Assembly (NCBI GenBank): GCA_016868535.1 | Contig: VGGQ01000004.1 | Location: 1-44,958 of the forward strand | Source: Bacteroidota bacterium | GTDB lineage: Bacteria; Bacteroidota; Bacteroidia; NS11-12g; UBA955 | Direction: 5' to 3' | Length of the DNA: 44,958 bases | In this document: positions 3,972-11,301 of the stretch, in pieces | How the letters are laid out: every line of letters starts with the position of its first letter | Position numbering within the stretch: the stretch's first letter is position 1 | Translations under genes and position numbers: made by a program | The notes under the pieces: model-generated | Seen by the model: only the letters and a program-made list of their open reading frames with translations | Databases searched by the model: none | Told to the model about the DNA's origin: nothing

Positions 3972-5813
3972 ATGTCATTAAAAACAGATAAGGTAAACGA
4001 TTTCGTGGTACGATTTGCAAATGTGAATGGAACGGGTTCTGCCAGTGCAAACTTTCTTTTTACAAAATCAATTTTCAGGATGGGAATTCCTGTAACACCC
4101 AAAAATATTTTTCCTTCTAACATACAAGGTTTACCAACTTGGTATGAAGTTCGTGTAAATGAACAAGGATACCTTGGCCGCAGAGAAGGTATTGATCTGA
4201 TGGTGGCGGTGAATCCTCAGAGTATGTTGAAAGATGTGCAAGATGTTAAGATAGGAGGGTACTTTTTATACGATAGCTCAAAACCTTTACATAGTGAGTA
4301 CATCCGTAGAGACATCAATTACCTCCCTATTCCTTTGATGCAAATGTGCAATGAAGCATATACGGATGCTCGCCAACGACAATTATTTAAAAACATTATT
4401 TACGTTGGTGTGCTTTCCGCTTTGTTAGACATTGAGTTTAAAATACTGGAAGATCTGTTGGCGGAACAATTTAAAGGAAAAGAAAAATTAATTCCGGCCA
4501 ACGTAAAAGCATTGCAATTGGGGGTTGATTATGTTCACAAAAATTTTAAATATCCATTAGAAATTCGTGTTGAAAGAAGAAATTTGGTGGGTGATTGTAT
4601 AATGATGGAAGGTAATGCTGCCTGTGGTTTAGGAGCTGTTTATGCCGGAGCTACAGTAGCTGCATGGTATCCTATCACCCCATCTACATCAGTTGTTGAA
4701 GCATTTAGTGACTATGCTGCCGAACTTCGTGTGGACAAAATTACCGGTAAAAATAATGTAGCAATTATTCAGGCTGAAGATGAGTTAGCAGCCATAGGAA
4801 TCGTAATTGGCGCCAACTGGAATGGCGCACGTTCATTTACTGCAACCAGCGGACCCGGTGTTTCATTGATGAATGAATTTTTAGGCCTGGCTTATTTTGC
4901 AGAAATACCAACAGTATTAATTGATGTACAACGAACAGGCCCATCAACCGGAATGCCTACACGTACACAACAATCAGATATATTGGAGGCAGCTTATGCA
5001 TCACATGGTGATACAAAACACGTTTTACTTTTCCCATCAACACCAACCGAATGTTTTGAAATGACTGCTGATTCATTTGATCTTGCAGAACAATTGCAAA
5101 CACCGGTTATTTTAATGACTGATTTGGATCTTGGAATGAATGATCACGTTACAAAAGCATTGAGCTGGGATGATAAACGTGGTTACAAAAGAGGCAAAGT
5201 ATTGGATGCTGCCGCTCTTGAAAAATTAGAAAAATTCGGGCGCTATTTGGATGTAGATAAAGATGGAATTCCTTATCGTACCATTCCCGGAACACATCCT
5301 ACAAGAGGTTCATATTTTACACGAGGAACTTCACGTGATGAATATGCAGTTTATACTGAGGATAGTGCCGCATATAAACGTAATATGGATCGTTTGATCC
5401 GTAAATGGAACACAGCCAAAGATATGGTGCCTGCACCTCAGCTATATCAGAAAAAAAATAAATCCAAATATGGTATTTTATTTTTTGGAACTTCTACCTA
5501 TTCTGCACAGGAAGCAATGGATATTTTAGAAGAAGAAGATGTAATTGTTGATGCTATTCGTTTAAAAGCATTTCCATTTAATCAAACAGTTGAGGACTTT
5601 ATAAATTCACATGATAAGGTATTTGTAATAGAACAAAATCGCGATGCACAATTAAAAAGTTTAATGATGATTGAATTACACGCTGATCCTAATAAATTGA
5701 TCTCTGTGTTGAATTATGATGGTATGCCGATAACAGCTGATAACATTTTGAAACAGATTACATCGAATTTATCAGAAAATAATATTAACCGCAAAGTCGC
5801 AGAGGTGCGATGA
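3972..5813 (+). CDS. korA: 2-oxoacid:acceptor oxidoreductase alpha subunit
   Basis: Fused gamma domain (NGTGSAS), YPITPS, QAEDELAA, TSGPG, QRTGPSTGMPT. Confidence 0.95.
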   Translation: MSLKTDKVNDFVVRFANVNGTGSASANFLFTKSIFRMGIPVTPKNIFPSNIQGLPTWYEVRVNEQGYLGRREGIDLMVAVNPQSMLKDVQDVKIGGYFLYDSSKPLHSEYIRRDINYLPIPLMQMCNEAYTDARQRQLFKNIIYVGVLSALLDIEFKILEDLLAEQFKGKEKLIPANVKALQLGVDYVHKNFKYPLEIRVERRNLVGDCIMMEGNAACGLGAVYAGATVAAWYPITPSTSVVEAFSDYAAELRVDKITGKNNVAIIQAEDELAAIGIVIGANWNGARSFTATSGPGVSLMNEFLGLAYFAEIPTVLIDVQRTGPSTGMPTRTQQSDILEAAYASHGDTKHVLLFPSTPTECFEMTADSFDLAEQLQTPVILMTDLDLGMNDHVTKALSWDDKRGYKRGKVLDAAALEKLEKFGRYLDVDKDGIPYRTIPGTHPTRGSYFTRGTSRDEYAVYTEDSAAYKRNMDRLIRKWNTAKDMVPAPQLYQKKNKSKYGILFFGTSTYSAQEAMDILEEEDVIVDAIRLKAFPFNQTVEDFINSHDKVFVIEQNRDAQLKSLMMIELHADPNKLISVLNYDGMPITADNILKQITSNLSENNINRKVAEVR

Positions 5814-5848
5814 AAATAATCTCTGCGCCTTAGCGTATACGGGGTAAA
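5788..5848. repeat. REP-like hairpin overlapping the korA stop
   Basis: ACCGCAAAGTCGCAGAG ... CTCTGCGCCTTAGCG imperfect inverted repeat. Confidence 0.45.
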
Positions 5849-5869
5849 AAAATAAACAAAAAAAAGACT

Positions 5870-6922
5870 ATGAGTTACATTAGACCCAAATTCCGCCACC
5901 CTGAGTTACCTAAAAATAAATTAGGTTATACCATTGATTATTATGAGGGTTCTCTTTCTACACTATGTGCTGGTTGCGGACACGATTCAATTACTGCCGG
6001 TATTATACAGGCGGCATTCGAATTAAATATTGAACCTCACAAGCTTGCAAAACTTTCAGGGATCGGTTGTTCGTCTAAAACACCCGCTTATTTATTAAGC
6101 AACTCTCATGGATTTAATTCTGTTCATGGACGTATGCCTTCTGTTGCTACCGGAGCCAATTTAGCGAATCGTGATTTGATTTATTTTGGTGTTTCCGGTG
6201 ATGGTGATTCTGCAAGTATTGGAATGGGACAATTTGTTCACGTGATCAGAAGAAGTTTAAACATGACCTACATTGTAATGAACAATGGTTGTTATGGATT
6301 AACAAAAGGTCAAGACTCTGCAACTGCTGATCAGGGTTCAAAAAATAAAACCGGACACATAAATTTTTTTGAATCCATCGATCTGGCGAGTTTAGCAATT
6401 GAACTGGGTGCAACATTTGTGGCTCAAAGTTTTTCAGGCGATAAAGCTCAATTAGTGCCGCTAGTGAAAGCTGCGATGAAACATCCTGGCTTTGCATTCA
6501 TCAATGTAATTTCACCTTGTGTAACATTCAATAATAATGTGGGTTCCACCAAATCATACGATTATGTTCGTCATCATACAGAAGCAACTGCTACCCTTGA
6601 TTTTGTTCCGGAAATGGCTGAGATCACAACTAGTTATGATGAAGGAACTGTAAAGCATGTAAAGATGCATGATGGTACTACAATCAAATTGAATAAACTT
6701 GCACAAGAGTGGGATCCATTGGATAGACAATCTGCAGTTAATGCAGTGATTAATGCAAAAGCGAAAAATGAAATTCTTACCGGACTATTGTATATGAATC
6801 CTGATGCAAATGATTTACATCATTTGATTAAAACTAGCGATACTCCTTTAAATTCACTAACCAAAGATGTTCTTTGTCCCGGCTCATCAGTATTGAAAGA
6901 AATTAATGCAGGGTTGAGGTAA
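5870..6922 (+). CDS. korB: 2-oxoacid:ferredoxin oxidoreductase beta subunit (TPP-binding)
   Basis: LCAGCGH, SGIGCS, HGR, GDGD...NNGCYGLTKGQ, SPCVTFN. Confidence 0.95.
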   Translation: MSYIRPKFRHPELPKNKLGYTIDYYEGSLSTLCAGCGHDSITAGIIQAAFELNIEPHKLAKLSGIGCSSKTPAYLLSNSHGFNSVHGRMPSVATGANLANRDLIYFGVSGDGDSASIGMGQFVHVIRRSLNMTYIVMNNGCYGLTKGQDSATADQGSKNKTGHINFFESIDLASLAIELGATFVAQSFSGDKAQLVPLVKAAMKHPGFAFINVISPCVTFNNNVGSTKSYDYVRHHTEATATLDFVPEMAEITTSYDEGTVKHVKMHDGTTIKLNKLAQEWDPLDRQSAVNAVINAKAKNEILTGLLYMNPDANDLHHLIKTSDTPLNSLTKDVLCPGSSVLKEINAGLR

Positions 6923-7004
6923 TATAATCAATCGTTATTTTTTATAAGTTTGTCACGAATTGGTCCCGCAATATTAGGATTCGCACCTACTGGGGGATTA
7001 TAGG

Positions 7005-7076
7005 TAACTTGCTTATTGGCGAACAAATTTGCACATATAATCCTCCTAATCAAATATTTTGTGCAACAAAATTGCC
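7005..7076 (-). mobile_element. attI-like recombination site B (near copy of site C)
   Basis: TAACTTGCTTATTGGCG-AACAAATTTGCACATAT-N15-ATATTTTGTGCAA..ATTGCC aligns with 9901-9974. Confidence 0.55.
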
Positions 7077-7129: not shown

Positions 7130-7420
7130 GTCCCTTAATTGCCGTTCAACCCGTTATAGAATCGCCCACAAAGGCCCCATTTACATGTTTGATTCGCTGG
7201 GCGACCACAACGCATTCAACACTTGTATATCGCCTTTAAACATGTCTTCAGACCAGCATACAGTCTGTCGTTGGCTTCTCAAATGCCTTGTTCAGCCGCA
7301 GGACGCAATGAATCGGCGTTTCCAATGTCAGTAATCTGCGCTTTTTCGGTGCTCACTGAGTTGCAGGTTGCCAGTGCTATGGCCAGGCCTAAGGTGAGGG
7401 TCAAAATGGGAATTGTTTTT
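7130..7420 (-). pseudogene. Decayed SnoaL/NTF2-like lipoprotein
   Basis: Signal LAIALATC, then EANDRLYAGL / MFKGDIQVLNALWS / MGP / ITG*TAIK across several stops and frameshifts. Confidence 0.6.
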
Positions 7421-7451
7421 TAATCATTCCGAGTATTTATTTTGGTTAAGG

Positions 7452-7994
7452 TTATTGCACCTTTACGTCGGTGGTGGCCACAGCCACTATTTCGTTGTTC
7501 ATGATCACCGGAACTGCGCGTGTTCTCATCCACACTTCGCCACCTCCGGCATCAAAATAAGGCTTGGTCCAAATGGCATATCCACTGTCTACAGGCATGC
7601 GCAGCCAGGCTTGTTCGTCTATTTTATAGGCCGAGTCGGCCAAGTTTTTCATAGCCAGGGTATCGTTTAGGCGGTACCAATACGGGCTGTAGTAAACCTT
7701 TCCAGCGCTATCCAATAGCGCCACGGTTGCCCCAAAGAAACTCGGCGATTGGGCCGCCAGATAATCCCTTACCCGATTGGAAAGGCCGGTAGAATCAAGG
7801 GGATGGGCCTGCAAATCCACCACAAAGGCGTCCAAAGCAACTTCGTAAGCCAACAACGGATTTCGGTCATTCTCCTTTTTGCATGCCACCAATAGCAGCA
7901 GCGCCAACACAGCTTGGGACATGGTCCGCAGCAATCCTTTTGTTCGGTGGATGGCGGAGCATACTCCGTTCGCAGTCGTTTTCAGTGTTTTCAT
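7452..7994 (-). CDS. Stand-alone Cache/PDC-domain lipoprotein
   Basis: Lipobox LLVAC; WTKPYFDAGGG..MRTRAVPV....IVAVATTDV Cache motif; true start may be the second Met (MSQAV). Confidence 0.8.
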   Translation of the reverse strand: MKTLKTTANGVCSAIHRTKGLLRTMSQAVLALLLLVACKKENDRNPLLAYEVALDAFVVDLQAHPLDSTGLSNRVRDYLAAQSPSFFGATVALLDSAGKVYYSPYWYRLNDTLAMKNLADSAYKIDEQAWLRMPVDSGYAIWTKPYFDAGGGEVWMRTRAVPVIMNNEIVAVATTDVKVQ

Positions 7995-8058
7995 AGCGTT
8001 TAGGAGTTTTGTTCTCGAATATTTCGTGTCAATACATTTTTTTAATTTCTTCTCATAA

Positions 8059-8102
8059 GGCTTTTCGGAATACCCCTCATTTTCTGGAGTGGGTTCTGGA
8101 CT
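8059..8102 (-). repeat. 44-bp intergenic hairpin motif, copy 1
   Basis: 36/44 identical to 9062-9105. Confidence 0.7.
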
Positions 8103-8118
8103 GCGTTTGTTTGCTAAA

Positions 8119-8412
8119 TTATTTGCAATTGCCCATTTCTTTCAATAAGGCTTCAGCAAATTTTTCCTTATCAGAGTCAGAAGTGTATTTCCCTTCCAAT
8201 TCTTTTGATAAACTTTCCGCTTCAGAAGTCAACTTTGTGCTTTCTTCCATTACGGACATATCACCAGATGTTACTCTCTGCATTAGTTTTTGAGCTTTGC
8301 ATTGAAGTTCTGCAACTCTTTTAGCATCTCTTTCAATAGATCCACCTCCGCAGCTTGTTAAAATTGTTGAAGCAAATAAGATTGCTCCGAAAATTGTCAT
8401 TACTTTTCTCAT
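8119..8412 (-). CDS. Small helical lipoprotein, hypothetical
   Basis: Lipobox LTSC; two further Cys (LQC, GNC) could form a disulfide. Confidence 0.8.
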   Translation of the reverse strand: MRKVMTIFGAILFASTILTSCGGGSIERDAKRVAELQCKAQKLMQRVTSGDMSVMEESTKLTSEAESLSKELEGKYTSDSDKEKFAEALLKEMGNCK

Positions 8413-8517
8413 TTTTATATTTTATTAAGAAATATCCATTAAAATTTATCTTCTCTAACCAACTTTGCTGATAGAGGGTCTAAAGATTTGTATTTTGATT
8501 TTTATTATTTCAATTGC

Positions 8518-9033
8518 CTATTTGGATGTAAAACTAAAATCACCCTTTGCAACAATTGAATTGTTCTTTTTGACATTGAAAGTTCCAACAATTTCACCTG
8601 GTACTGAATACTTTGTGAAGGTTATTTCAGCATAGTCGTATGATAAGTCATTACCATTTATCGTTGCCAAAAATTCAAAATCATCTTGGTAGGCCATATA
8701 GTCCCCTCTTGACGTGTATTTCTTATTGATTTTTACGTTTCTGCCTATATGATCTGATGGCCAAATATCAAGATATGCATCATTGCTCACGTCAAAATAA
8801 ACAAAGAGCATTGCTCTATTAGTTGACTGAAACGAAAATGTATTAATAGAGTTTGCGATAGGACTTGTTGTAAAAGTTGCTTTCAGTTTTGCACCGTTTG
8901 TAATCTCTAAATTGAAAGTTCCATTATTTGGGGTTTCCTCCTTTTTACAGCCCGTAAAAATCAATAGTAAAAGTGAAACTAGAAGTAGTTGATTTTTCAA
9001 GATTTTAATCCCATAGTTAAATTTAAATTTCAT
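8518..9033 (-). CDS. Hypothetical lipoprotein
   Basis: Lipobox FTGC followed by KKEE (Bacteroidota surface-export-like signal); beta-rich. Confidence 0.8.
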   Translation of the reverse strand: MKFKFNYGIKILKNQLLLVSLLLLIFTGCKKEETPNNGTFNLEITNGAKLKATFTTSPIANSINTFSFQSTNRAMLFVYFDVSNDAYLDIWPSDHIGRNVKINKKYTSRGDYMAYQDDFEFLATINGNDLSYDYAEITFTKYSVPGEIVGTFNVKKNNSIVAKGDFSFTSK

Positions 9034-9061
9034 TTTGTGTGGTATAATATCCTACTCGTAT

Positions 9062-9105
9062 GGCTTTTCAGAATACGCCCCGTTTTTTAGAGTGGATTCT
9101 GGGCT
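9062..9105 (-). repeat. 44-bp intergenic hairpin motif, copy 2
   Basis: 36/44 identical to 8059-8102; CAGAAT/ATTCTG stem. Confidence 0.7.
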
Positions 9106-9202
9106 CCACTATTAAAGTGCAATAATACTATTTTTTTGTAACATTGAGTGGTCAGCTCTTTGGCTCTCGCAGACCGTCTCGGTTTTTATTTTTTAAACTT
9201 GC

Positions 9203-9341
9203 ACATAACGGTTTCGGGCTTTGCGTTCGGGCGGGCTTTTTAAAACCGTAAACTGTCTGCTTGCACCAACGTTTATTAATTGCTCAAATGTTCATATTCA
9301 CACTGTCCGCCCACTAACGCAAAACCCGTGTTTTAGGGCGT
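9203..9341 (-). mobile_element. attC-like cassette recombination site (long bulged palindrome)
   Basis: Pairs AAC/GTT (9207-9209/9330-9332), CGGG/CCCG, TTTGCGTT/AACGCAAA, GGGCGG/CCGCCC with asymmetric bulges; begins ~17 nt after the GNAT stop and ends in GTTATGT. Confidence 0.7.
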
Positions 9342-9358
9342 TTTTCTTTCATTCATTG

Positions 9359-9844
9359 TTAAGCTAGTTTATAAATAAATTCTTCAATTTCGGTTTGTCG
9401 GGCATTTGCAAAACCTTTGTCTGAACCGATTCTTGTAAAACCACATTTTTCTAAAACGTTTTGCGAACCAAAATTGTCAAACGCAACTCGTCCATAAATT
9501 GGTCTATTCGTAACAACGTCAAGAAAGTTTTTTAGTGCATTTGTCGCAATACCTTGTCCCCAATATTTTCTACCAATCCAATATGTGATTTCTGTGTCTC
9601 CTTCCATTACAAATTTTGCAATACTTCCTACGATAACATTGTCAATCAAAATTGTTTGGTTATTTACGGTTGGATCGCTTAATAATTCCGTAAACTTATT
9701 TAGATATGCTGTTTTGTCTGTCGGGTCTTTGGGCATAAATGCCGCCAAATATCCGCCTTCTTTGTCAAGTTGAAATTGAAACAAAGTGTCCAAGTCCGAA
9801 ATTTCAGTTGGTCTAAGTTTTATGTTAAGGTTATTGATTGTCAT
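9359..9844 (-). CDS. GNAT N-acetyltransferase (RimJ/RimL family), cassette-like gene
   Basis: EITYWIGRKYWGQGIAT motif A; DNFGSQNVLEKCGF motif B. Confidence 0.92.
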   Translation of the reverse strand: MTINNLNIKLRPTEISDLDTLFQFQLDKEGGYLAAFMPKDPTDKTAYLNKFTELLSDPTVNNQTILIDNVIVGSIAKFVMEGDTEITYWIGRKYWGQGIATNALKNFLDVVTNRPIYGRVAFDNFGSQNVLEKCGFTRIGSDKGFANARQTEIEEFIYKLA

Positions 9845-9892
9845 TGTTGTCTAATCACTATGAAATTATTTTTTATTTACGGTCGTCCCAAA

Positions 9893-9974
9893 ATGCCCCA
9901 TAACTTACTTATTGGCGCAACAAAGTTGCACATATTTTCTTACTAGGTGGATATATTGTGCAATTGGTATTGCC
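9893..9974 (-). mobile_element. attI-like recombination site C at the start of the GNAT cassette
   Basis: - strand TTGCACAATATAT-N15-ATATGTGCAA..CGCCAATAAGTAA|GTTATGGGGCAT; near copy at 7005-7076. Confidence 0.6.
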
Positions 9975-10051
9975 TATTTTATCCTTTTTCGGGGTTGTTT
10001 TTTGTTTATAAATCATCGAAAGGACTTTTGATTCTTTGTAAGAAAGAACCT

Positions 10052-10136
10052 TATATTTGTACATGCGCAATAAACTGAATACATCCAAATCTGAGGTATA
10101 GAGGAAGGTTTATAGCGTGTACAAGCTAGTTATGGG
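10052..10136 (+). mobile_element. Promoter box, inverted repeat and GTTATGGG core (attI-like site D) before the LamG gene
   Basis: TATATTTG (10052-10059); TTGTACA..CGCAATAAAC / GTTTATAGCG.TGTACAA; core at 10129-10136. Confidence 0.45.
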
Positions 10137-10189
10137 TAAGCTTGATGAAAATTGAAAGAAATATTAAACAATAAAAACAAAGAGACAAA

Positions 10190-11221
10190 ATGAAAAAAAT
10201 AAGTTTCCTTTTACACGGGGTGTTTGCGTTCGGTTTTGTAACTGCAAGTTTGGCACAAGTGCCAAAATATGTACCGACCAATGGGCTTGTTGGGTGGTGG
10301 CCGTTTAATGGGAATGCAAATGACCAGAGTGTGAATAGACATAACGGAACTGTGACAGGGGCAACATTGGTTTCAGACCGCTTTGGAAATAACTCAAGTG
10401 CCTATTTTTTTAATTACAAACATTGGGTTCCGGGTTCAGGTGGTGACGAAATTTATATTCCTTACACTTCTATTCTTGCTCCAAAAAACATCACTGTCTC
10501 CGTTTGGGCCTATAGAACTTCGGCGGGATACCCAAATCAAAACCTCAATATTATTAATCGCTTTGAGGAAGGCTTTAGCACTCCGAACGGACAAACTTGG
10601 GCATTAGGTGTGGGCGCAGATCCTGAGACAACAATATACTGTGTTGTATATCAAGCAGCACTGAATAATAATCAGGCTAATTTAGAGAGCAACGGTCCAT
10701 ATCTAAGCTTAAATACCTGGAACAATATTGTTATGACCTTTGATGGTTTGGCACTGAAACAATTCATCAATGGTGTCATGATCGACTCTGTTTCTGCAAA
10801 TGGATTAACGCTGAATACAACAGGTACCTCAGGAATTTCTATTGGTGTTTCCGATCAAGCGAGTGGCATTTGGTCACCATTTGACGGAAAAATCGACGAC
10901 ATTGGCATTTGGAACCGTGCCTTATCCCAAAAGGAAATAACAGATTTGTATAATGCAAATAATGTGGGTATAAATGAAAACACACAAGATAATTTATTAT
11001 CATTATATCCAAATCCTGCTCAAAGCCAAATCAACATAAATGCAGACATCAAACTTATCGGTGAGATTTACTCCATCTATGATAATAACGGAAAACTTGC
11101 ATTAACAGGAAAGCTTAACTCTCAAAACACAACAATTGACTTGGGCAATTTATCAGGTGGGTTGTATATGTTCAGTGTTGGAGAAAATATGAAGCAGTCA
11201 TTTAAAGTGATTAAAGAATAA
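10190..11221 (+). CDS. LamG-like jellyroll protein with T9SS type A C-terminal sorting domain
   Basis: Signal peptide; VPTNGLVGWWPFNGNAND; FDGKIDDIGIWNRALS; LYPNPA...GLYM..KVIKE. Confidence 0.92.
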   Translation: MKKISFLLHGVFAFGFVTASLAQVPKYVPTNGLVGWWPFNGNANDQSVNRHNGTVTGATLVSDRFGNNSSAYFFNYKHWVPGSGGDEIYIPYTSILAPKNITVSVWAYRTSAGYPNQNLNIINRFEEGFSTPNGQTWALGVGADPETTIYCVVYQAALNNNQANLESNGPYLSLNTWNNIVMTFDGLALKQFINGVMIDSVSANGLTLNTTGTSGISIGVSDQASGIWSPFDGKIDDIGIWNRALSQKEITDLYNANNVGINENTQDNLLSLYPNPAQSQININADIKLIGEIYSIYDNNGKLALTGKLNSQNTTIDLGNLSGGLYMFSVGENMKQSFKVIKE

Positions 11222-11257
11222 ACCAGCCCCTTATAGCGTTTAAGCGCAACCCTTCGG

Positions 11258-11301
11258 GTGTGGGCGCTGTTGTAGCAAACGGTGATGATGGAAACCTTCA
11301 C
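11258..11301 (-). pseudogene. N-terminal stub of a GT2 glycosyltransferase (WcaE-like) cut by the island edge
   Basis: GTG overlapping the wcaF stop reads VKVSIITVCYNSAHT, then similarity ends. Confidence 0.75.

Follow-up and report, generated by a model that had tools for sequence, protein, structure and literature searches.

A probable integron-type gene cassette at a decayed platform in a Bacteroidota genome

What kind of unit is a 695-bp segment of a Bacteroidota genome that carries a single acetyltransferase gene and ends in a long palindrome? The segment lies in a stretch of 44,958 nucleotides (hereafter the window, meaning the whole stretch of DNA that was analyzed; contig VGGQ01000004.1 of assembly GCA_016868535.1, from a lake bacterium of the order NS11-12g), and a first-pass annotation made from the letters alone had read it as an integron-like cassette, with a GNAT N-acetyltransferase gene between an attI-like site and an attC-like hairpin. 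This call is supported by the arrays found in relatives, the boundaries of the unit and the cassette footprint, all described below. We consider it very likely that the 695-bp unit is an integron-type gene cassette, made up of a promoterless GNAT gene and an attC-type site, and that it occupies the attI-type site of a decayed platform, in which all but the last 10 codons of the integrase gene have been deleted. Of the gene-capture machines of bacteria, integrons are understood best; surveys at present recognize them by the insertion specific to the integron integrase (IntI) together with one attC model. The annotation had also called canonical IntI integrons rare in this phylum; passages of two papers (PMC8618304 and PMC9024848) do report integrons from Bacteroidota, if only seldom.

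The unit and the family of its hairpin

All coordinates first given for the GNAT reading frame, the unit and the palindrome were confirmed. The sequence GTTATGGGGCAT reads from 9904 to 9893, and hence the unit TT...G spans 9903 to 9209, or 695 bp. The sequence GTTTTAGGGCGT sits at 9330-9341 on the plus strand and is identical to the unit's own 5' end at nine of 12 positions and to the present distal arm at five of 12, the same counts as before. In order, the attC-type site comprises an R''-like box (9336-9330), two unpaired bases, a 12-bp stem (9327-9316/9227-9216), an internal loop, a second stem (9313-9307/9235-9229), a centre of ~70 nt, six unpaired bases (9215-9210) and the R' box GTTATGT (9209-9203, minus strand), which closes the palindrome.

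When window positions 7400-11300 were compared with 40 relatives by BLAST, matches to the hairpin region reached 91% identity and came from other genera as well as from the order's second family. BLAST within the own genome gave no clear second copy of the hairpin, and further copies were found by the covariance model alone (R1, built in this analysis from hairpin copies). An alignment of 15 copies (141-144 nt) had conserved arms and a centre that was variable or subfamily-specific, and its homology ended at TAAC on the 5' side and at GTTA on the 3' side; RNAalifold gave a 15-pair stem with compensatory changes in 10 of the 15 pairs. The family, with a size of ~132 nt, had R1 matches in 103 of 151 genomes of the same order (E<=0.001) and, in a phylum-wide sample, in 72 of 151 genomes and 46 of 89 genera (E<=1e-6). 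The own genome held six matches, on contigs C4, C19 (two), C106 (two) and C5, and the cultured carrier Pedobacter chinensis (record L102) held three sites. The window copy scored 132.9 bits on the minus strand (E 4.6e-37) and 21.8 bits on the plus strand, an asymmetry that should be taken as one of sequence and not of the recombining strand.

Among 65 sites, length ranged from 129 to 148 nt (median 132), the core triplets were AAC in 58 and GTT in 60, and the boxes of the family consensus were TAAC in 51 and GTTA in 50. Searches of Rfam with the window hairpin and with seven array loci gave no family at the gathering score, Flavo-1 and DUF1874 included, and both of these identities were ruled out by the absent match; at E<=10, the window hairpin was overlapped only by a chance-level fragment of a group II intron (16.2 bits, E 0.81). 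The Rfam check proposed in the first-pass annotation, which had singled out Flavo-1, therefore left the hairpin unexplained. A separate observation concerns C106 of the own genome, where two R1 sites (1035-1176 and 1145-1291, within 1035-1291 on the plus strand) overlap or abut, with a gene of type IX secretion system (T9SS) type directly upstream. No gene separates the two sites, which may represent an empty cassette or a tandem pair.

Arrays, platforms and movement of the cassette

Copies of R1 form same-strand arrays, as on G134:C50 (15 copies over 34 kb), G124:C42, G130:C1 and G014:C222 (G, C and L label genomes, contigs and sequence records). The spacers between copies had a median of 939 nt (47 spacers), and the longest open reading frame was co-oriented with attC in 44 of the 45 spacers that held one of at least 60 aa. 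The hairpin family therefore lies between variable, mostly single genes, which is where the first-pass annotation had expected it. The arrays also carry the footprint of cassette integration: in 34 of 48 consecutive pairs of sites, the hexamer after GTT was the inverse complement of the hexamer preceding AAC in the following site, compared with 50 perfect matches among 4048 re-paired controls and one among 64 comparisons of a site's own R'' with its own present R'. Such pairing is what crossover at G|TT and circular cassettes predict. Some spacers of 5-10 kb have a perfect end footprint as well (on G134:C50, which is L045 2750-12501, and in other arrays) and represent very large multi-gene cassettes; one array cassette encodes a BRCT-domain protein.

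The G134 array is headed by a divergent 376-aa tyrosine recombinase. Its relatives occur in 58 of the 151 order genomes (E<=1e-50), in many cases at the end of a contig, and its family has at least 7999 members (E<=1e-30). Among 15 loci picked because a recombinase and an R1 match share a contig, the recombinase adjoined the array in a consistent orientation in all 15: the layout was divergent in six (G134, G135, G183, G150, G022:C6 and G017) and co-oriented, with the array past the 3' end of the gene, in nine (G024, G019, G096, G036, G022:C4, G111, G005, G122 and G023). The recombinase was also beside the array in four of five complete or near-complete genomes of other families, and 50 of the 58 integrase-bearing genomes had R1 matches. 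A co-occurring tyrosine recombinase, for which the first-pass annotation had proposed a search, thus exists beside the arrays of relatives, and it differs from a canonical IntI.

Co-oriented loci have, past the integrase stop codon, an inverted repeat with a third half-site and a conserved A/T-rich end that runs up to G|TTA, at a distance from stop to site of 81-112 nt (five measured). The repeat sequences vary by lineage and the layout is constant; the divergent head of G134 has three similar repeats with the same spacing to G|TTAT, and its first cassette begins at G|TTAT, with an R'' of its own that matches at 12 of 13 positions. The same arrangement is found in the window. Intact array-linked integrases end in IKSPFDDL followed by the stop, matching the remnant upstream of the GNAT unit, and the remnant's DNA was 88% identical over 33 nt (E 6e-6) and 89% over 28 nt (E 2.7e-4) to the integrase 3' ends of G015 and G024, respectively. 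There is an in-frame stop five codons further upstream, and G9904 lies 102 nt after the remnant's stop codon. Across copies in the own genome (C10, C133 and window 7005-7066) and in other genomes (G003, G001 and G020), the attI-like homology ends at 9901-9904, with unrelated DNA following GTTA. The attI-like call of the first-pass annotation was therefore right, and on stronger ground than it had claimed, since the 60 bases upstream of the unit are a conserved site that follows an integrase stop and ends at G|TTA; its statement that the window holds no IntI was also borne out, the 10-codon remnant being all that is present. The platform in this genome is a fossil, consisting of attI, one cassette and then a unit with a DUF805 RNA motif and a lipoprotein gene that has no detectable attC.

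Two other readings of the attI element, as a simple promoter module and as the end of a transposon, were rejected, as no upstream sequence is conserved except the integrase remnant. A promoter within the attI-like site is possible; the site contains a TTTG box, which we take to resemble a -7 element. Orphan attI-like copies, with neither an integrase remnant nor a cassette, were seen at window 7005-7066 (minus strand), C10:4289-4351 (plus strand; a terminator-like hairpin lies ~70 nt further on) and C30:16469-16497 of the own genome. At C133:2984-3290 of the same genome, the GTT of a 63-nt attI-like copy runs straight into the final 44 codons of an integrase, and past the stop codon there is another attI, of a different lineage type and likewise ending in G|TTA; this arrangement looks like recombination at attI that deleted most of the integrase gene.

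We next turn to the GNAT cassette itself. GNAT relatives of 68-84% identity were scattered over Bacteroidota and a few other phyla (best 80 of 165 relatives), and within the order, GNAT was found in two of 150 other genomes. An R1 site began 10-25 nt past the GNAT match in seven of the 80 loci (L097, L136, L132, L117, L113, L140 and, weakly, L098) and abutted GNAT upstream in four (L136, L137, L120 and L122). In the aligned GNAT cassettes, homology begins exactly at G|TTAT and ends at G|TTA, and the flanks are unrelated; the records with these boundaries are titled Aequorivita, Parapedobacter, Chitinophagaceae, Bacteroidaceae and Daejeonella. GNAT homologues elsewhere thus share the G|TT boundaries beside different neighbours, as the first-pass annotation had anticipated for a cassette. 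The attC subfamily of the window GNAT is shared by L097, L136, L132 and L117. Four other loci (L101, L105, L120 and L122) have no attC and only an R''-like box left after the stop codon, which we read as attC decay. These alignments show that the same GNAT cassette has moved between orders.

Near-identical strains also differ in cassette content. The metagenome contig L177 matches window 10286-9199 at 99.1% identity and 9214-6021 at 99.97%, and directly after the GNAT attC it has an extra 1233 nt that contain a 368-aa amine-oxidase gene and a weak attC of its own. The window stretch was present in 20 lake-water metagenome runs, four of which were compared in detail, with contigs placed at 90% likeness. 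A form without GNAT was found in two of the four (X10 and X14), where 9179 and 9897 are linked on one contig by 15 other letters, at a depth of 19.3 in X10 and 13 in X14 versus 15.4 and 7.5 for the GNAT-bearing contigs. The 15 letters begin, on the minus strand, like window 9201-9192; therefore, attI is joined to the downstream unit and the 695-bp cassette is missing. Together with L177, these variants indicate that forms with zero, one and two cassettes coexist. Depth peaks at 8993-9300 and 9840-9993 show only that these elements repeat in the community.

A further difference was seen within the attC arms. Over the final ~28 bases of the GNAT attC, window 9210-9236 and L177 1050-1076 have several mismatches, although the two strains are otherwise 99% identical; these bases of the window also differ from the GNAT attC of other taxa and look like a 3' arm from another subfamily. 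The R' box that follows GNAT in L177 begins with GCC, not GTT. The arm mismatch suggests exchange inside the attC arms as well as at G|TT.

The recombinase, the proposed mechanism and rival readings

Eleven array-head recombinases were scanned with NCBIfam profiles. Against NF040815 ('site-specific tyrosine recombinase/integron integrase'; cut-off 220), they scored 188-234 bits, with five of 11 above the cut-off; against the XerC and XerD profiles, they scored 151-202 bits versus cut-offs of 330-335, and with their patchy occurrence at array heads they do not behave as housekeeping Xer enzymes. The integron integrase profile TIGR02249 (cut-off 265) gave 166-209 bits in all 11, and the match breaks near profile position 178 and resumes near 240; a gap at 181-238 was also found in the five complete or near-complete genomes. 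An alignment to IntI4 (2a3v) skips chain residues ~214-246, and an AlphaFold model (predicted local distance difference test score 81.6) shows residues 253 and 271 connected without an additional helix. The enzymes carry an extra N-terminal domain of ~75-100 aa, modeled as a small beta/alpha domain at residues 1-56. Foldseek ranked XerA (5hxy) first and IntI4 next, and the family keeps the catalytic R, K, HxxR, H and Y residues. From the profiles and the model, the array-head enzymes are Xer/IntI-like tyrosine recombinases without the IntI-specific insertion.

In relatives, the intact platform comprises such a recombinase, an attI ~100 nt past its stop codon (or a divergent recombinase upstream of attI) and then the cassettes, each ending in an attC of ~132 nt. 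The array-linked recombinase would cut between G and TT of the R' box, and the cassette would leave as a circle and enter at attI; because it would travel as a circle, its R'' would be complementary to its own first bases and not to those that now follow it. By analogy, attC would act as folded single-stranded DNA, and cassette expression may be driven from the attI side by a promoter in attI. The comparisons above show the unit's boundaries, the footprint, the arrays, the movement of the cassette between orders, gain and loss among near-identical strains and the linkage of recombinase and arrays; we infer catalysis by the linked recombinase, the folded-strand action, the strand used and the attI promoter. 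In the present genome, which is without an intact recombinase, the cassette would now be fixed unless an enzyme arrives from elsewhere.

Several observations weigh against reading the unit as such a cassette. Taken alone, the window hairpin folds modestly (DNA minimum free energy -23.2 kcal/mol, z = -1.88), and 11 of 200 shuffles fold equally well. The window's own footprint signal is also weak: the start of the unit matches its own R'' at four of the six bases beside GTT, a level (at least four of six) reached by 1061 of 4048 re-paired control pairs (26%), so that the count of nine in 12 on which the first-pass annotation had relied is correct and yet not significant by itself. That the feature is non-random is shown by comparison with other sequences and not by the window alone. 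The boxes are a second difficulty. Canonical attC sites have the box consensus RYYYAAC/GTTRRRY, and in the 65 sites the full consensus was found in only three for R'' and four for R', in line with the deviation of the cores noted at the outset. Both GNAT homologues within the order are without an adjoining attC and therefore give no help with the boundaries there, and 60 of the 80 GNAT loci have no R1 site within 3 kb, 20 having any match. Only eight of 30 unselected integrase loci (~1.5-kb flanks on each side) hold an R1 site, and R1 matches occur in 53 of 93 genomes without the integrase. The own genome, in an assembly 99.8% complete, has no intact array-type integrase; it retains the 10-codon window remnant, a 44-aa C-terminal fragment on C133 and two Xer-like genes (C17 and C18), and with no intact integrase in the assembly, present cassette mobility is unproven here. 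Finally, the GNAT-less contigs, placed at 90% likeness, are of uncertain source and may come from a related species, and the strain differences could have arisen through homologous exchange of the flanks instead.

Clusters of attC sites or single attC sites without an integron integrase are classed as CALIN and SALIN, respectively (Cury 2016 and Neron 2022), and the window would be placed there because it has a single attC and no intact integrase. On this account, the palindromes are plain attC sites served by a canonical IntI elsewhere in the community and the neighbouring Xer-like enzyme is incidental, which we consider unlikely. Integrons share the GTT and AAC cores, the hairpin form, the length of 129-148 nt and the footprint; in the genomes sampled, attC sites often stand with no integrase nearby (as in the 53 integrase-negative genomes); and integrons have been 'detected' in Bacteroidota according to passages of PMC8618304 and PMC9668308. 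Against these stand the TIGR02249 scores and the gap in the profile match of all 11 array-head enzymes, the absence of any TIGR02249 match over the cut-off in the own genome and the five complete or near-complete array genomes, and the two fixed geometries in which the recombinase adjoins attI. TIGR02249 at E<=1e-40 also matched none of 191 genomes of the order, which is weak evidence because the positive control of that search matched nowhere. The window further differs from CALIN and SALIN elements in retaining an attI and an integrase remnant.

A palindrome that acts as RNA (a terminator, a stabilizer or an element like a repetitive extragenic palindrome) or as a miniature transposable element, with a GNAT unit that is not discretely mobile, is very improbable. 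The element does lie just past a stop codon, its T-G pairs would be U-G pairs in RNA of the gene strand, its fold energy is modestly better than that of shuffles, and many copies occur per genome; none of this predicts the inverse-flank footprint (34 of 48 versus 50 of 4048), a gene and element travelling together with sharp G|TT ends, or a dedicated tyrosine recombinase and attI at array heads, and the hairpin has no Rfam match. The footprint and the shared G|TT boundaries largely refute it. Least probable of all is movement by housekeeping Xer enzymes, as for dif-like modules or Xer-exploiting elements, with the array-head gene a mere paralogue: the array-head enzyme is closest to XerA/Xer in sequence and fold and the own genome keeps its C17 and C18 genes while strains differ in cassettes, but the sites are 132-nt hairpins and not 28-bp dif-like sites, and the enzyme has its own N-terminal domain, a patchy distribution (58 of 151) and a fixed place beside attI.

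Relation to known systems and the surroundings of the cassette

With a cassette at an attI-type site as the preferred reading, the system resembles canonical integrons (for example, the sedentary chromosomal type with its Vibrio cholerae repeats) in having a tyrosine recombinase beside attI, arrays in which an imperfect palindrome of ~130 nt comes after each of the mostly single, co-oriented genes, crossover at G|TT, and a cassette R'' complementary to its own first bases. Its attC hairpins have AAC and GTT cores, the first cassette is joined at G|TT to an attI beside the integrase, attC is uniform in length and sequence within a clade, and divergent and co-oriented integrase layouts both occur. 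It differs in that the enzyme lacks the IntI-specific insertion, scores below the IntI cut-off and has an extra N-terminal domain, in that the boxes are not kept beyond TAAC and GTTA, in the unpaired spacer beside the R box (here 2 vs 6 bases), and in a host phylum where surveys found almost nothing, as passages of PMC9024848 and a 2024 preprint (bioRxiv 10.1101/2024.07.02.601686) put it; the preprint names Bacteroidota among clades 'previously found without any integrons'. Its architecture is that of an integron; judged by the defining feature of the integrase, it falls outside the canonical type.

Archaeal XerA and bacterial XerC/D (PDB 4a8e, 5hxy and 1a0p) are the best matches of the enzyme in sequence and fold, with conserved catalytic residues; unlike them, the array-head family is not housekeeping, is patchy and array-linked, has an added N-terminal domain and is associated with long-hairpin sites. 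Dif-like (pdif) modules carry short duplex dif-like sites on both sides and use host Xer enzymes. They too are gene modules moved by Xer-type tyrosine recombinases, as are Xer-exploiting elements, whereas here each unit has one long hairpin, and a dedicated enzyme and an attI are present. The DUF1874 motif, as described in passages of Weinberg et al. 2017 (PMC5737381), is a structured element found in consecutive intergenic regions, ORF after ORF, which its authors took for a possible non-standard attC without seeing an integrase. It is alike as a conserved structured element after successive genes and as an attC candidate; it is a separate family by Rfam, and an integrase, an attI and the footprint are identified here.

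It is also possible, with a chance we put a little short of even, that these arrays form a widespread, Bacteroidota-specific integron class with an attC of ~132 nt, an attI of repeats plus a half-site and an Xer-like integrase that lacks the IntI insertion and has an extra N-terminal beta/alpha domain, which standard detection may miss. We found no description of this cassette system in the literature searched, which excluded subscription journals and supplementary tables; the supplementary tables of PMC9024848 and PMC5737381 may hold Bacteroidota elements or DUF1874-motif taxa that bear on its novelty. With every architectural hallmark of integrons and a presence in roughly one in two of the Bacteroidota genomes sampled, the system gives access to a large set of accessory genes still to be explored. 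If the linked enzyme recombines folded sites, the IntI insertion is not required for cassette recombination, and a second lineage of recombinases would have developed or retained cassette capture, within a phylum treated as nearly integron-free. In passages of PMC8138268, that insertion is called essential for integron function, yet 'not fully conserved' in an integron-like subgroup. The system thus offers a natural test of what an integrase needs to read a folded attC, and possibly a new pair of recombinase and site for Bacteroidota genetics.

The features of the locus are collected in Table 1. The GNAT protein matched Acetyltransf_3 (66.7 bits, cut-off 25.4) and Acetyltransf_1 (33.5 bits, cut-off 20.7) in Pfam; no NCBIfam family was above its cut-off (top score 18.5 bits versus 170), and a PDB sequence search gave no match.

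Table 1. Coordinates of the candidate cassette, its platform and adjoining features in the window
Feature	Positions	Strand	Remarks
Integrase 3' remnant	10006..10038	minus	10 codons, QRIKSPFDDL, and stop
attI-like site	9904..9963	minus	Inverted repeat, third half-site and conserved A/T-rich end; stops at G of G|TTA
Gene cassette (probable)	9209..9903	minus	695 bp; begins with the TT that follows the attI G and ends with the G of the attC R' box
Cassette 5' leader	9845..9903	minus	Conserved with GNAT cassettes elsewhere; first ~25 bases resemble general cassette starts
GNAT N-acetyltransferase gene	9359..9844	minus	161 aa; Pfam PF13302 and PF00583
attC-type site	9203..9336	minus	134-nt imperfect palindrome; R1 132.9 bits
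Start of next unit	9180..9208	minus	Like typical cassette 5' ends; joined to attI in the GNAT-less form
DUF805 RNA motif (RF03081)	9045..9114	minus	Rfam 78.7 bits vs gathering score 51.1; leader of next gene
Lipoprotein gene (predicted)	8518..9033	minus	171 aa; outside known families
Second, orphan attI-like copy	7005..7066	minus	79% identical to 9901-9963

The 171-aa reading frame matched neither Pfam nor NCBIfam, and an R1 search with filters off gave no second attC 3' of it. It is probably a terminal cassette whose attC has decayed or is missing; a supporting layout is found in G015:C64, where a DUF805 RNA motif and a signal-peptide gene form the first cassette after attI. The G+C content of 8000-10500 is 32-37% versus 45% genome-wide, and the low stretch, which extends over 8000-11250, spans the cassette, the 171-aa frame and a divergent T9SS Laminin_G_3 gene; this is not decisive because 5500-7000 is also low.

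The DUF805 RNA motif was met repeatedly near these sites. By BLAST, it also lies at ~989-1046 in the first post-attI cassette of G015:C64 (L079) and, in G024:C12, at 2136-2202 between two attC sites 410 nt apart, and its depth in lake metagenomes is many-fold above that of its flanks, suggesting that it may be a frequent passenger of these cassettes.

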